Made by a program: the position numbers and the translations under genes
Notes under the pieces: generated by a model
Databases searched by the model: none
Told to the model about the DNA's origin: nothing
Seen by the model: only the letters and a program-made list of their open reading frames with translations
Virus record (IMG/VR): IMGVR_UViG_2529292719_000021
Location: 1-6,341 of that record
DNA from: a virus
Taxonomy: Duplodnaviria > Heunggongvirae > Uroviricota > Caudoviricetes
Length of the DNA: 6,341 nucleotides
Reading direction: 5' to 3' (one strand)
Part shown: positions 1-5,792 of the stretch, one piece after another
How the letters are laid out: the number at the start of each line of letters is the position of its first letter
Position numbering within the stretch: the stretch's first letter is position 1

Positions 1-56
1 GGTATCCGTTCTGCTGAAGTGTCATGGCGTTGATTTTACGGTGACTCTTCGACAGT

Positions 57-83
57 GAAAAGAAAAAAGGCCGCAGAGCGGCC
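57..83 (-). terminator. Rho-independent terminator closing the minus-strand repressor-int-cargo transcription unit
   Basis: Perfect 6-bp GC stem GGCCGC/GCGGCC with 3-nt loop at 69..83; on the minus strand it is followed by a U-run (plus-strand A-run 57..68). Lies about 110 bp downstream of the stop of the 193..759 gene. Confidence 0.6.
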
Positions 84-192
84 ATAATCACATTCAAAAA
101 TCAACAAGTTAAATAATTATCAATAACTTACAGACACACAAAAACACAGTCAACCACAACAAGTAACAGTGATGTGGTCACTTTGTGGATCA

Positions 193-1245: not shown

Positions 1246-2223
1246 TTACATTCCTCCCAAGGGATTAAACCTCACCGCATCCTGCAAGTAATCCGGCGCA
1301 AGATGGGCATAAATCATCGTTGTCTGAATCTTTGCGTGCCCCAGAATTTTCTGGAGCGTCAGAATATTGCCGCCGTTCATCATGAAATGACTGGCGAAGG
1401 TGTGGCGCAGCGCATGAACAGCCTGGCCGTCAGGAACATCAGGTGCGACCGTTTTGATGACATCGCGAACCAATGAATAATCCAGCGTCGGAAACACCAG
1501 TTTCCCGCCCCGTTTTTTGATCTTTTCAAACAGGCTTTCAGAAATAGGAACGGTACGGTTTTTGCTGTTCTTCGTTTTTGAAAAAGTGATTCGACAATGA
1601 AGAACACGGCGCTGCTCCAGTGCCGCTACCTCGCCCCATCGCGCCCCGGTCGACAGAAGGATTTCGACGGCCAGCCGTTCATCGGGATTTTCAGCCAGTG
1701 CATCCAGCAACTGAACACATTCAGACTTACTCAGATATCCCATTTCACGCTCGTTAACCTTCATTCCTTTAAGGCCTTGAACGGGGTTATCGTTAAGAAA
1801 ATGGCCGGATGAGATGAGTGCGGTAAACATCGCGCTTAACGCCCCAATCTCTCGATTTATGGTGCTGGGCTGTATCCCCTGCTCTATCCTGGACACACGT
1901 AGCTCGGTGAGCATCGTTGTATTAAGTTTATGCACGCACGGGTCATCCATTGCCTCACTCAAGCGCAGCAATTTAAGGCGCGTGTTATGCCCTGACTTCA
2001 TTAGCTGGCCGTGGTATTTCCACCACAAGTCAATAAGCACTGACAGCGGACGGCGATCAATGGAGTTTCCTTTCCACTCATTGTTATGCTGTTGCGCCAG
2101 CACCCACCGCTCATATAAAACTGCATCCGATTTCGTTTTAAATTTTTTGCGAATGCGTTTGCCTTTACGCCCCTCAGGACGCATGTCAAGAAGATACCCT
2201 CCCGGAATTGATTTTATGCTCAT
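1246..2223 (-). CDS. int: Tyrosine site-specific integrase, P2-Int-like family
   Basis: Translation from the internal ATG at 2223: MSIKSIPGGYLLDMRPEGRKGKRIRKKFKTKSDA... Carries the recombinase boxes STGARWGE, HALRHTFASHFMMNGG and LGHAKIQTTMIYAHLAP (catalytic Tyr). The N-terminal pattern matches what I recall of P2 Int. The ORF-track start at 2373 would overlap the upstream repressor, so 2223 is preferred. Confidence 0.9.
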   Translation of the reverse strand: MSIKSIPGGYLLDMRPEGRKGKRIRKKFKTKSDAVLYERWVLAQQHNNEWKGNSIDRRPLSVLIDLWWKYHGQLMKSGHNTRLKLLRLSEAMDDPCVHKLNTTMLTELRVSRIEQGIQPSTINREIGALSAMFTALISSGHFLNDNPVQGLKGMKVNEREMGYLSKSECVQLLDALAENPDERLAVEILLSTGARWGEVAALEQRRVLHCRITFSKTKNSKNRTVPISESLFEKIKKRGGKLVFPTLDYSLVRDVIKTVAPDVPDGQAVHALRHTFASHFMMNGGNILTLQKILGHAKIQTTMIYAHLAPDYLQDAVRFNPLGGM

Positions 2224-2272: not shown

Positions 2273-2584
2273 TTAGCCGGGCTGTGTGCCAGTCTTGCGG
2301 GATTTTTGAGAAGACGATGTGTTTTCTGGCCCATCAGGGGAGAGAGAAGGACTGATCTGCCCAGCAGCCTCATTTGTTTCGTTACTCATCAACCACGTAG
2401 TGTATTTTTTAAATTCCGGGTGCATTGTGATTTTCAGTAAAACCTCCGTTCCCACACCTCGAATACCAGTCTCGTATTGCTTAACCGTACCAACCGCAAT
2501 ACCTATTGAATCCGCGAACTTTGCCTGACTAAGCCCCTCAGATTCTCGAATTGCTTTTAGCTTCTTTGATATCTCTATTGACAT
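2273..2584 (-). CDS. HTH immunity repressor (P2 C-like / XRE-type), upstream of and co-oriented with int
   Basis: Translation from the ATG at 2584..2582: MSIEISKKLKAIRESEGLSQAKFADSIGIAVGTVKQYETG..., a helix-turn-helix followed by FKKYTTWLMSNETNEAAGQISP, resembling the recalled C-terminal motif of P2 C. AGGTG lies 7 nt upstream. The repressor-then-int order on one strand with a divergent early operon matches P2/186 organisation. Confidence 0.7.
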   Translation of the reverse strand: MSIEISKKLKAIRESEGLSQAKFADSIGIAVGTVKQYETGIRGVGTEVLLKITMHPEFKKYTTWLMSNETNEAAGQISPSLSPDGPENTSSSQKSRKTGTQPG

Positions 2585-4801: not shown

Positions 4802-4923
4802 GAAACCAGAACATGCACACACAAAAAAACCGCTTGCCATGCCGCAATCGGTCAGGTTACATTTCCGCTGCACCTCATAAAACGGGTGCCGGGATTCTCA
4901 ACCCGATACAGAGCAAAGCGCAT

Positions 4924-4945
4924 AACCGCGCCAGCGGTTTTTTTG
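4924..4945 (+). terminator. Candidate intrinsic terminator
   Basis: AACCGC-GCCA-GCGGTT hairpin (6-bp stem) followed by TTTTTTT at 4939..4945, about 120 nt after the stop at 4801. Confidence 0.4.
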
Positions 4946-4956
4946 TGCGTACTGTA

Positions 4957-4985
4957 TTGCCACGTCTTTTTCGCGTCAGAATTAT
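4957..4985 (+). promoter_or_regulatory. Candidate sigma70 promoter for the downstream genes
   Basis: TTGCCA (4957..4962), 17-nt spacer, AATTAT (4980..4985). A transcript from here would carry a leader of about 130 nt containing a UUCG-loop hairpin (about 5000..5018). Confidence 0.3.
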
Positions 4986-5123
4986 GGCGGGGCGTACGGG
5001 GCCGACTTCGGTCGGGCCGGATTCTTTGCTCTCCGGTGTTGAGAACCCTGTACGTCTCGCCACCCCGAGATTCTCAACTCTGGATGGTGAGCTATTTCTA
5101 TCACCGAGCAAAGAGGCCACACC

Positions 5124-5354
5124 ATGGCAAACCGCAAACAACAGCGCGCATACGCTGCGCGTCGTCACATCCAGACTGAAATCAACCGCAGACTTTCCCG
5201 CGCATCACGCGTCGCGCAAATCATGCACATCAATATGCTGCATGAGCGCAGCCACGCACTATCAAACATTTATTCCGCCTCTGTTTTCAGCTATCTGGCG
5301 GATGATCTGCACGAGCTTCAACAGCTCATCCAGCAGCAAAACAAACTCCATTAA
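5124..5354 (+). CDS. Small basic hypothetical protein
   Basis: 76-aa ORF; AAGAGG sits 7 nt upstream. Arg-rich N-terminus MANRKQQRAYAARRHIQTEINRR. Confidence 0.45.
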   Translation: MANRKQQRAYAARRHIQTEINRRLSRASRVAQIMHINMLHERSHALSNIYSASVFSYLADDLHELQQLIQQQNKLH

Positions 5355-5426
5355 TTCCTGTTCCGGGCCTTTCCTGCACCTTGCGGCGGGAGGCCTTCGC
5401 ACATCTGTAACAAGAGGATTGCCGCA

Positions 5427-5792
5427 ATGATTCTCGCCAACGACTTTCTTGAATACCTGCTCAACACAGAGCGTGATCTTGCCGCTCGCGTGCGTGATCG
5501 TTATGACATGTACCTGAAATCCCTGCCTGTACCGCAGCTCGCTGACGGAAAGATTGTTATTGATGGTCGCTACATGATTGACAGCCACGAGGGAAATTAC
5601 AGGCTTTACCGCATTGAAGGTGGCACCCCGTCCGTTATTGGCATTTACCAGCGCCCATCCTCTGCAATCGTCGATGTGATTGCCGACAGCATCCGCATCA
5701 CACATCGCCATGCCGACACAGAAGACACCGTGCTGGAAATTCAGCGGCTGGCTACAGTCTGCCGCGACACCCTGAATGGCATGACGAAGTAA
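5427..5792 (+). CDS. Hypothetical protein
   Basis: 121-aa ORF; AAGAGG sits 9 nt upstream; only 6 nt before the next start. Confidence 0.5.
   Translation: MILANDFLEYLLNTERDLAARVRDRYDMYLKSLPVPQLADGKIVIDGRYMIDSHEGNYRLYRIEGGTPSVIGIYQRPSSAIVDVIADSIRITHRHADTEDTVLEIQRLATVCRDTLNGMTK

Follow-up and report, generated by a model that had tools for sequence, protein, structure and literature searches.

A putative C4/IsrK-type antisense RNA switch upstream of an epsilon-like gene in a P88-like prophage

Introduction

The first 6341 nucleotides (nt) of the virus record IMGVR_UViG_2529292719_000021, which are the whole stretch of DNA analyzed here and are hereafter called the window, cover the left end of a prophage that belongs to the P2 family and, within it, to the P88 type (genus Xuanwuvirus). 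Its rightward early operon is composed of short, mostly abutting open reading frames (ORFs), at the end of which ORF121 and the gene for a replication endonuclease of the P2 gpA type are located. Between positions 4802 and 5123 this arrangement appears to be broken by a structured island, which the original prediction described as non-coding and as containing a terminator-like hairpin, a candidate promoter, a stable hairpin and a repeated motif. Which function does such an island have within an early operon? Most of the described features were found again, either at the same positions or displaced by 1-2 nt, and we conclude with a probability of about 0.8 that the island is an antisense switch of the C4/IsrK type acting on a gene related to epsilon of the satellite phage P4. 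The switch is proposed to provide an RNA-based secondary immunity (anti-immunity) to this P88-like, P2-family prophage.

Results

Two triplets of complementary motifs

Attention had initially been drawn to the island by three copies of a motif with the core TTCTCAAC, two direct and one inverted. The window indeed contains exactly three copies, at 4895-4902 and 5071-5078 on the plus strand and, inverted, at 5038-5045, while shuffled sequences harbored 0.24 copies on average and reached three copies in only one of 200 shuffles. A second triplet with the same layout had been overlooked. It is made up of GAGCAAAG at 4911-4918 and 5106-5113 on the plus strand and, inverted, at 5024-5031 (0.33 copies expected; three copies in one of 200 shuffles). 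Long-range complementarity exists between 4892-4902 and 5038-5048 and between 4910-4918 and 5024-5032. Together, the triplets supply the elements a1/b1, a'/b' and a2/b2 known from C4-type antisense systems:

4892-4902, plus strand: a1, upstream target or decoy copy, GGATTCTCAAC, complementary to a' (duplex -16.1 kcal/mol)
4910-4918, plus strand: b1, upstream target or decoy copy, AGAGCAAAG, complementary to b' (duplex -12.5 kcal/mol)
5023-5032, plus strand: b', antisense segment in the loop of hairpin 2, TCTTTGCTCT, unpaired in the fold
5038-5048, plus strand: a', antisense segment in a single-stranded junction, GTTGAGAACCC
5069-5078, plus strand: a2, downstream target copy, GATTCTCAAC, pairing extendable to 5084
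5106-5116, plus strand: b2, downstream target copy, GAGCAAAGA (5106-5114), duplex of -18.0 kcal/mol reaching over a Shine-Dalgarno (SD) sequence

The long-range RNA stem of 4891-4917 with 5030-5049, from which a riboregulator or a small RNA had been considered, thus corresponds to the pairing of a1/b1 with a'/b' in a C4-type system. The a2 segment, which is complementary to a' over 14 nt at 86%, begins 5 nt past the predicted 3' end of the C4-like RNA described below. The b2 segment overlaps the SD sequence AAGAGG (5111-5116) of an ORF of 76 amino acids (aa), whose ATG is located at 5124, and a target of the b2 type overlapped the SD sequence in all 21 loci that were read.

On the 3' side of a2, the segment TGGATGGTGAG (5081-5092) is in part a repeat of ATGGCGGGG (4984-4992), which forms the 5' strand of the closing stem of C4. 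It can pair with the 3' strand of this stem (CTCGCCA), which places a2 in a hairpin loop. A feature of this kind is also present in P4 and in lambdoid loci; the transcript may adopt this fold as an alternative before it is processed.

The C4-like antisense RNA

An Rfam scan covering the whole window yielded two full-length matches above the curated thresholds, C4 and isrK. Together with the elements upstream of them, they form the following module:

4817-4837, plus strand: A-run segment ACACACAAAAAAACCGCTTGC, complementary over 21 nt (90%) to the 3' arm and U-run of the terminator (4930-4950)
4834-4863, plus strand: predicted internal promoter of the sigma-70 type, TTGCCA-18-TACATT, 9 of 12 consensus positions matched
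4870-4944, plus strand: IsrK/seqA-like leader RNA, Rfam isrK RF01394, 62.8 bits (threshold 50), full length
4980-5067, plus strand: gene of a C4/CI-type antisense RNA, Rfam C4 RF01695, 78.5 bits (threshold 45), E 1e-14, model positions 1-87

Alignment to the annotated ends of P1 c4 predicts a mature RNA of 79 nt (approximately 4986-5064). It comprises a closing stem of 16-17 bp, a UUCG hairpin, a second hairpin exposing b' in its loop, the single-stranded a' and a 3' end reading ...GCCACC. The UUCG hairpin (CCGAC-UUCG-GUCGG), which had been assigned to approximately 5003-5016, occupies positions 5002-5015. When 4986-5064 was folded alone, the minimum free energy (MFE) structure was that of the family (-47.1 kcal/mol, z -5.3; ensemble frequency 0.73), and none of 200 shuffled sequences folded as well. 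A covariation analysis of homologous regions, which the original prediction had recommended, disclosed compensatory changes in 15 of the 27 C4 base pairs (19 sequences), and complementarity between motifs and targets was kept across the loci. The GCCACC end and the 5' flank AAUUAUGG of C4 are conserved as well. This flank reads AAUUAU in front of GG, and 18 of the 21 loci have AAUUAU at the 5' border of C4. Judging from the homologues, the C4-like RNA is probably processed from a longer transcript, with RNase P generating its 5' end.

Tandems of isrK and C4 were found in all 15 further phage and prophage loci scanned. On the immunity region of P4, which has been defined experimentally, the same models scored 74.9 bits for CI (C4 model) and 60.8 bits for seqA (isrK model), and P1 c4 reached 68.8 bits. 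That isrK corresponds to seqA and C4 to CI has been pointed out before (PMC4825925, PMC10111431).

The IsrK-like leader RNA and its promoter

A terminator-like hairpin with a T-run had been reported for the island. It was identified at 4924-4939, followed by seven T residues, and constitutes the last part of the leader RNA. Upstream of it are hairpin 1 (4870-4889), hairpin 2 (4890-4905), whose loop contains a1, and the single-stranded b1. The segment 4870-4944 (fold -24.2 kcal/mol, z -3.1) therefore shows the three hairpins ending in an intrinsic terminator that characterize the isrK family. The gap between isrK and C4 amounts to 35 nt in the window and to 21-107 nt in the other 17 loci. Only for Gifsy-1 is isrK RNA known to bind Hfq and to activate the cistron downstream of it in trans (PMC4825925).

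A candidate promoter within the island had also been postulated, and sites were predicted at 4834-4863 and 4957-4985. Transcription from the former would start near 4870, its -10 hexamer ending 7 nt before the start of the isrK model. The -35 and -10 hexamers have the same distance to the isrK model start in all 18 aligned loci, including PLE of P4 and P1c4 of P1, and the annotated -10 region of P1c4 (P51b) likewise ends 7 nt ahead of the isrK model start. Hence, the predicted promoter at 4834-4863 is the positional counterpart of P4 PLE and P1 P51b (P1c4). The second candidate (4957-4985, TTGCCA-17-AATTAT) was rejected, because its "-10 region" is the AAUUAU flank of C4 and its "-35 region" is not conserved outside the P88 group; the sequence TCGCCA is found there in P88 and Shae_phiSM. 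Furthermore, deletion of the isrK promoter in Gifsy-1 abolished the downstream RNA (PMC4825925), which argues against a promoter at this site.

The A-run ACACACAAAAAAACCGCTTGC could serve as an antiterminator arm on transcripts arriving from upstream or as an UP element of the promoter. In the MFE fold of 4802-4960 it is paired with 4930-4947, by which the terminator hairpin is destroyed (z -4.1). The A-run is invariant from approximately 4820 in five P88-like loci and consequently shows no covariation; even in loci with a different upstream gene, homology of the module begins at approximately 4820. Equivalents of the pair of A-run and terminator are absent from the lambdoid and P1 loci and weak in N15. 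On the minus strand, a hairpin followed by U7 can be drawn at 4818-4850, but its energy was no better than that of shuffled sequences (z +0.31) and it was discarded as a terminator.

Antisense segments and targets change in concert

To compare the alleles we used 18 loci comprising 11 a-alleles and 14 b-alleles, to which three loci from genome assemblies were added (21 in total). Complementarity between the antisense segments and their targets and its co-variation across the loci were evident. Among the 18 loci, the a' and b' segments formed on average 7.1-8.8 contiguous Watson-Crick base pairs with their own targets and 3.1-4.1 with foreign alleles. The three added loci contained new alleles, in which all three copies had again been changed in concert. 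Five P88-like elements, which are otherwise approximately 90% identical, demonstrated how strongly this variation is focused. Inside the six patches 45 of 80 columns were variable, compared to 24 of 237 columns elsewhere (odds ratio 11, p 4e-16), and the leftover variation of the module includes compensatory changes in the C4 closing stem. Single departures from Watson-Crick pairing inside the b cores were all G.U on the transcribed strand (seven cases, about five of them independent), and A.C did not occur. This favors pairing of RNA over DNA sites.

The window and the phage-plasmid N15 have exactly the same a' segment, TGTTGAGAAC (5037-5046 in the window), but different b' segments. Similarly, P88 and the Salmonella s1 locus have a' in common, and P88 and Escherichia albertii have b' in common. 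The a and b alleles thus appear to reassort independently.

The gene presumably controlled by b2

The ORF whose SD sequence is overlapped by b2 is the first translatable gene on transcripts of the internal promoter:

5124-5354, plus strand: gene of a 76-aa P4-epsilon-like protein (derepression/antirepressor family), Pfam PF25738, phrog_3688 over the full length

The product belongs to the P4 epsilon family. It scored 32.9 bits on the Pfam family PF25738 "Derepression" (threshold 27; P4 epsilon itself 170 bits), and BLASTP aligned it to P4 epsilon with 33% identity over 51 aa (E 1e-9). Comparisons with P1 Icd and with sequences of the PDB yielded no match. The genes following b2 are the epsilon-like gene, ORF121 and gpA, with no gene of the Ant type among them. 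P4 epsilon derepresses P2 by binding to the P2 C repressor, which PMC2669165 names as its target. Since the resident repressor is a homologue of P2 C, an antirepressor directed against the phage's own repressor is plausible, and the epsilon-like protein may act in this way. Its translation would be blocked by the C4-like RNA.

An open reading frame through the module

The original prediction regarded the island as a non-coding interruption of a translationally coupled operon. The structured island is present, but its designation as non-coding is questionable, as it is completely spanned by an ORF that joins the upstream ORF to ORF121:

4813-5430, plus strand: predicted through-reading frame of 205 codons, analogue of P4 eta

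This frame starts 12 nt past the stop codon of the upstream ORF and approximately 20 nt upstream of the -35 region of the internal promoter. It crosses the promoter, both RNAs, both target sites and, in a different frame, the epsilon-like ORF, and its TGA overlaps the ATG of ORF121 (ATGA, 5427-5430). Thus, the island is probably not strictly non-coding, and the through-frame may be translated.

All eight P88-like loci retained the open frame. If considered relative to C4, the frame was free of stop codons from -150 to +140 of the C4 start in all 14 loci with an operon-embedded module (P88-like, mEp460-like and P4), whereas each of seven stand-alone modules (P1, N15, Klebsiella NAR688, PhiR12_2 and three Stx phages) contained one to three stops. 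The other two frames across the module are mostly interrupted. Relative to C4, the through-frame is the same frame as P4 eta and the long "antirepressor" coding sequences (CDSs) annotated across the module in lambdoid phages such as mEp460. In E. albertii NBRC 107761 (positions 1270-1450, approximately, of the respective locus) the a1 loop is longer by 1 nt and a2 shorter by 1 nt than in the window. As a result, about 170 nt are read in a different frame, yet the ORF is still open with 215 codons. Therefore, the amino-acid sequence is not what is conserved.

The Pfam family Phage_ASH (PF10554) gave 19 bits for the window (threshold 26), 27.1 bits for P88, 57.4 bits for mEp460 and 82.2 bits for P4 eta. 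In O157 Sakai the through-frame is annotated as ECs_2630, "antirepressor protein"; PhiR44_2 also lists it as a CDS, and some genomes label it "antirepressor" or "Ash family". The Phage_ASH model aligns to the translated promoter/IsrK/C4 region, i.e., to 4813-5430 of the window and, in three loci of our collection, to 8168-8767 on the minus strand (L003), 1141-2292 (L009) and 4968-5588 (L002). The Ash "protein family" may thus largely reflect conservation imposed by the RNAs together with the need for an open frame. A similar observation was made in mEp460/SfV-type lambdoid phages (L008-L012, approximately 1140-2300), where isrK and C4 lie between a cII-like gene and the replication genes. Here the RNA pair resides inside a long CDS annotated as "antirepressor", "transcriptional regulator" or "peptidase", the C-terminal part of which is a Rha-family domain, and the RNA genes are concealed within the protein annotation.

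Prophage setting

Apart from the module, the window carries the following elements of the prophage:

1246-2223, minus strand: integrase
2273-2584, minus strand: repressor, 40% identity to P2 C over the full length
2578-2607: strong promoter of the Pe type
5427-5792, plus strand: ORF121, phrog_3237
5799 onward, plus strand: start of the gene for a P2 gpA-type replication endonuclease, phrog_91 "nicking at origin of replication", extending beyond the window end (6341)

A replication endonuclease is annotated at the position of the last gene in the records of relatives. ORF121 revealed no similarity to P4 orf151 or P2 orf83 and matched DUF5405 only below the threshold. P2 and 186 do not possess such an RNA module; they contain a DUF5405 gene directly before A. 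The replication nick site of P2 is situated inside gene A, not upstream of it. Between 5300 and 6341 no intrinsic terminator was found, and the stretch 5100-5350 shows a bias of C over G. A scan of the window for tRNA and tmRNA genes was negative.

Between the attachment end and the integrase gene, two cargo genes overlapping by 17 nt reside on the minus strand. The first (193-759) encodes a DUF1640-type coiled-coil protein of 188 aa with repeated KGELKxDIAxL units and a hydrophobic C-terminal tail; the second (743-1243) encodes a protein of 166 aa, which matched no family and contains two CxxC-like pairs. Positions 1-130 (minus strand) gave a sub-threshold match (27.1 bits, threshold 38) to the enterobacterial small RNA (sRNA) STnc540. 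It is centered on a GGCCGC...GCGGCC terminator hairpin at the boundary of prophage and chromosome; in locus L001 the neighboring gene is btuC.

Distribution

The best-matching complete E. coli chromosome was 94.9% identical across the whole window, and strain GF31 matched 4819-5354 to 100%. The module together with the epsilon-like gene occurs in 1154 of 5426 complete E. coli genomes (approximately 21%) at a coverage of at least 80%. A search of species-representative genomes with the 76-aa protein resulted in three loci only. In the records inspected, no RNA gene is annotated at the module, the region being either blank or filled with protein CDSs, and the literature searched contained no description of an RNA switch in P88-like phages.

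Two further loci deserve mention. A 226-kb contig labeled Vagococcus sp. WN89Y (NZ_JBQPOM010000071.1) carries a P88-like module and an epsilon-like protein 93% identical to that of the window; its assignment to a Firmicute is probably due to contamination or a mislabeled assembly. Phage P13374 contains a full-length match to the Rfam family sRNA-Xcc1 (2523-2606, 79.6 bits, threshold 53) about 0.9 kb downstream of its C4 module, adjoining a small antB gene.

Discussion

A model for the switch

On the basis of these data, the switch might operate as follows. In the lysogen, transcripts initiated at approximately 4870 by the internal promoter (4834-4863) would mostly end at the IsrK-like terminator (4944), giving an RNA of 75 nt that displays a1 and b1. 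Transcripts reading through would be processed to the structured C4-like RNA of about 79 nt (4986-5064), whose b' loop and a' junction could pair with a2 and b2 downstream. As b2 covers the SD sequence, translation of the epsilon-like gene would be blocked, and Rho might stop transcription in the then untranslated, C-rich stretch 5100-5350, before ORF121 and A are reached. For this polarity on gene A we see an even chance. The a1 and b1 copies on the short RNA, which presumably acts as a decoy, would compete for the antisense segments, so that the ratio of short RNA to C4-like RNA would decide on the output of the antirepressor-like protein. Transcripts from Pe, which would play the part of the upstream promoter of P4, may behave differently. 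On these, ribosomes moving along the through-frame would melt the terminator and the C4 fold and exclude Rho, making lytic transcription insensitive to the switch. Whether such an eta-like override by ribosomes takes place is, in our estimation, evenly balanced. The more comprehensive proposal, that P88-like phages use a P4-type RNA immunity cassette to gate both their own epsilon-type antirepressor and the replication gene, is tentative and falls somewhat short of even odds.

Several observations speak against this sequence-based interpretation or parts of it. Folding of the whole leader gave two conformers of nearly the same energy (-107.2 and -106.0 kcal/mol), in both of which the SD sequence is paired, and nested models, RNAcofold of C4 with the mRNA or with IsrK included, omit loop-loop contacts; therefore, action in cis and in trans is inseparable in silico. 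The c4-a1b1 family (Rfam RF03163), which scored 51.0 bits on P1 and 44.1 bits on P4, reached only 15.9 bits in the window (threshold 46.7); the upstream element is the functional equivalent of c4-a1b1, yet it is matched by the isrK model. With regard to the through-frame, the eight P88-like loci are close relatives, so that their open frames are not independent observations. Its ATG at 4813 is preceded by a weak SD sequence. The predicted product of 205 aa resembles a translation out of frame and shows no significant similarity to P4 Eta (E 0.056), and, unlike kil and eta in P4, the epsilon-like ORF and the through-frame are in different frames. The case for polarity on gene A consists of the missing intrinsic terminator and the C-over-G bias at 5100-5350. 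Finally, the downstream genes are unlike those of every characterized system, as neither Icd/Ant nor an in-frame nested kil nor an alpha primase is encoded.

Alternative explanations

An alternative would be that a logic of the Gifsy-1 type dominates, in which the read-through leader would keep itself repressed in cis, activation in trans would mainly be due to the short IsrK-like RNA, and no processed C4 RNA would act as a repressor in trans. In this case a' and b' would pair with a2/b2 or a1/b1 in one molecule, and the short RNA would invade this structure and thereby activate translation of the epsilon-like gene. In Gifsy-1 of Salmonella, short IsrK acts in trans to raise the translation of orf45-anrP more than 100-fold, and one of the IsrK helices is the site of mutations (PMC4825925). 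Consistent with this logic, b' is paired with b2 and a' with a2 within one molecule in the MFE fold of 4870-5140, where the SD sequence is hidden. However, the work of Citron and Schuster in 1990, of Sabbattini in 1995 and of Ravin in 1999 is reported to have identified the processed RNA as a trans-acting immunity factor in P1/P7, P4 and N15, and the case of P4 is summarized in PMC10111431. Moreover, the C4 segment folds very stably when taken alone, its GCCACC end and AAUUAUGG flank are conserved, and hypervariable, co-varying alleles are expected of a specificity determinant acting in trans. We thus regard it as unlikely, albeit worth serious consideration, that the cis logic prevails; both modes are not mutually exclusive.

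The remaining explanations dispense with the RNA switch. According to the original prediction, the direct and inverted copies might be binding sites for the basic 76-aa protein or a replication initiator, and the repressor is another candidate. Three copies of each motif, where 0.24-0.33 are expected, in direct and inverted orientation suit DNA sites, of which a concerted change of all copies would be expected too. The details fit RNA much better, since the inverted copies coincide exactly with the loop and the junction of an RNA that shows covariation and matches an Rfam family over the full length, one copy is placed on the SD sequence in 21 of 21 loci, and mismatches in the b cores are G.U on the sense strand and never A.C. 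Two unrelated motifs, whose triplets each keep a fixed order, suit two RNA contacts rather than one operator, and the P2-type origin lies inside gene A. We consider DNA sites extremely improbable. Slightly less so, but still hardly credible, is that the region simply encodes a functional protein of 205 aa and matches the RNA families by chance. The conserved open frame of the P88-like loci, its annotation as a CDS in O157 Sakai and PhiR44_2 and the Phage_ASH match of the P88 version (27.1 bits) agree with a protein. Yet the window version stays below the Pfam threshold and is not significantly similar to Eta, the paired indels of E. albertii exchange the frame of about 170 nt and leave the ORF open, the variation sits in the RNA-pairing patches and preserves complementarity rather than codons, and the stand-alone homologues of P1 and N15 keep the RNAs without the ORF. 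That the module is an inactive relic spread by recombination might be suspected because P2 and 186 do without it. The prevalence in E. coli given above and the preservation of structure and target complementarity through many allele changes make this explanation most implausible. An antisense switch on the epsilon-like gene remains our preferred reading.

Implications

Both RNA families, the systems of P1, P4, N15 and Gifsy-1 and the eta principle are already established, and no new kind of mechanism is described here. Of interest to the specialist are the allele-like hypervariability of the pairing patches and the difference between embedded and stand-alone modules in the through-frame. The former, with antisense segments and targets changing in concert in an invariant background, provides a natural view of how the specificity of RNA-RNA recognition diversifies. 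The latter extends the eta principle of P4, by which ribosomes reading through a regulatory RNA render transcripts from upstream immune to it, to P2-like and lambdoid phages. If the proposed gating is true, the hypervariable a/b patches would be RNA "barcodes" that set heteroimmunity groups among nearly identical prophages, and the through-frame would be kept open solely for the ribosomes to override the switch on lytic transcripts.

Comparison with known systems

Among the closest known systems is prophage Sp13 of O157:H7 Sakai, also P2-like, in which the module and the epsilon-like gene are 98% identical to the window. The annotation of Sakai shows two overlapping CDSs at the module, ECs_2630 and ECs_2631, and no RNA. 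In 2009, the P4 epsilon-like gene of Sp13 was noted and proposed as a possible reason for an unexpected induction by mitomycin C; the searched passages of this paper, which do not mention RNA elements, describe a repressor without a cleavage motif (PMC2669165). The switch offers a candidate answer to the question raised there. If our proposal holds, the pair of IsrK-like and C4-like RNAs would be the unexplained induction route of prophages with a non-cleavable repressor such as Sp13.

In Gifsy-1, one promoter likewise gives rise to a short terminated IsrK RNA and a read-through transcript, with a stable processed RNA downstream (PMC4825925). In its isrK/STnc1160 (orf45)/anrP region the antirepressor gene is regulated at the level of translation, the locus contributes to the induction of the prophage, and the short RNA homologous to that of the window turns on both the antirepressor and induction (PMC4825925). 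Gifsy-1 differs in being lambdoid and in employing an antirepressor of the Rha/Ant type coupled to orf45, instead of the epsilon-family protein of the window.

The immA region of N15 also contains isrK (62.4 bits) and C4 (78.8 bits) in tandem, and has the a' segment TGTTGAGAAC of the window. The b allele and the downstream genes are different, and the N15 module stands alone and has stops in the through-frame. There, a small processed RNA (CA RNA) controls the anti-immunity operon with antA, icd and antB, as indicated by the title of Ravin 1999 listed in PMC4488713.

With immI of P1/P7, the window shares the order a1, b1, c4, a2, b2 at nearly equal spacing. In P1, a2 starts 4 nt after c4 (5 nt after the C4-like RNA in the window), and b2 is annotated just before the start of icd; in both cases b2 lies over the SD sequence of a small first ORF gating an antirepressor function. 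The a/b segments act as specificity determinants between P1 and P7, and such segments are seen as alleles among the relatives of the window. Unlike the window, which encodes no homologue of Icd or Ant, P1 regulates icd followed by ant1/ant2. In addition, the upstream element of the window scores as isrK and not as c4-a1b1, and the P1 module stands alone with a C1 operator and without a through-ORF, whereas that of the window is embedded in an operon.

The immunity region of P4, whose PLE leader consists of seqA, the CI RNA and seqC, is distinguished from the window by several properties. P4 is a satellite with an alpha primase and a Rho-dependent terminator (timm), while the window comes from a P2-like phage, which has a complete early operon and initiates rolling-circle replication with gpA. 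The linker between the two RNAs measures 107 nt in P4 and 35 nt in the window, and ORF121 is unrelated to orf151. The epsilon-like gene of the window directly follows b2 in a frame other than that of the long ORF; in P4, kil is nested in eta, and epsilon is located at some distance downstream. According to PMC10111431, transcripts from the internal constitutive promoter of P4 are terminated through interactions of CI and seqA and yield CI, and translation of eta on transcripts from the upstream promoter prevents termination (citing Forti et al. 1999). The correspondence is nevertheless extensive. P4 and the window match the same two Rfam models in the same order, the promoter occupies the same position, and a target of the b2 type lies over the SD sequence of the first downstream ORF. 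In both, a long ORF (approximately 200 codons) begins ahead of the promoter and traverses the module, its frame relative to the RNA being the same; an epsilon-family gene and then the replication genes follow. If the gating proposed here is correct, the immunity/derepression cassette of the satellite P4 would have a recent common ancestor with a cassette resident in the family of its helper.

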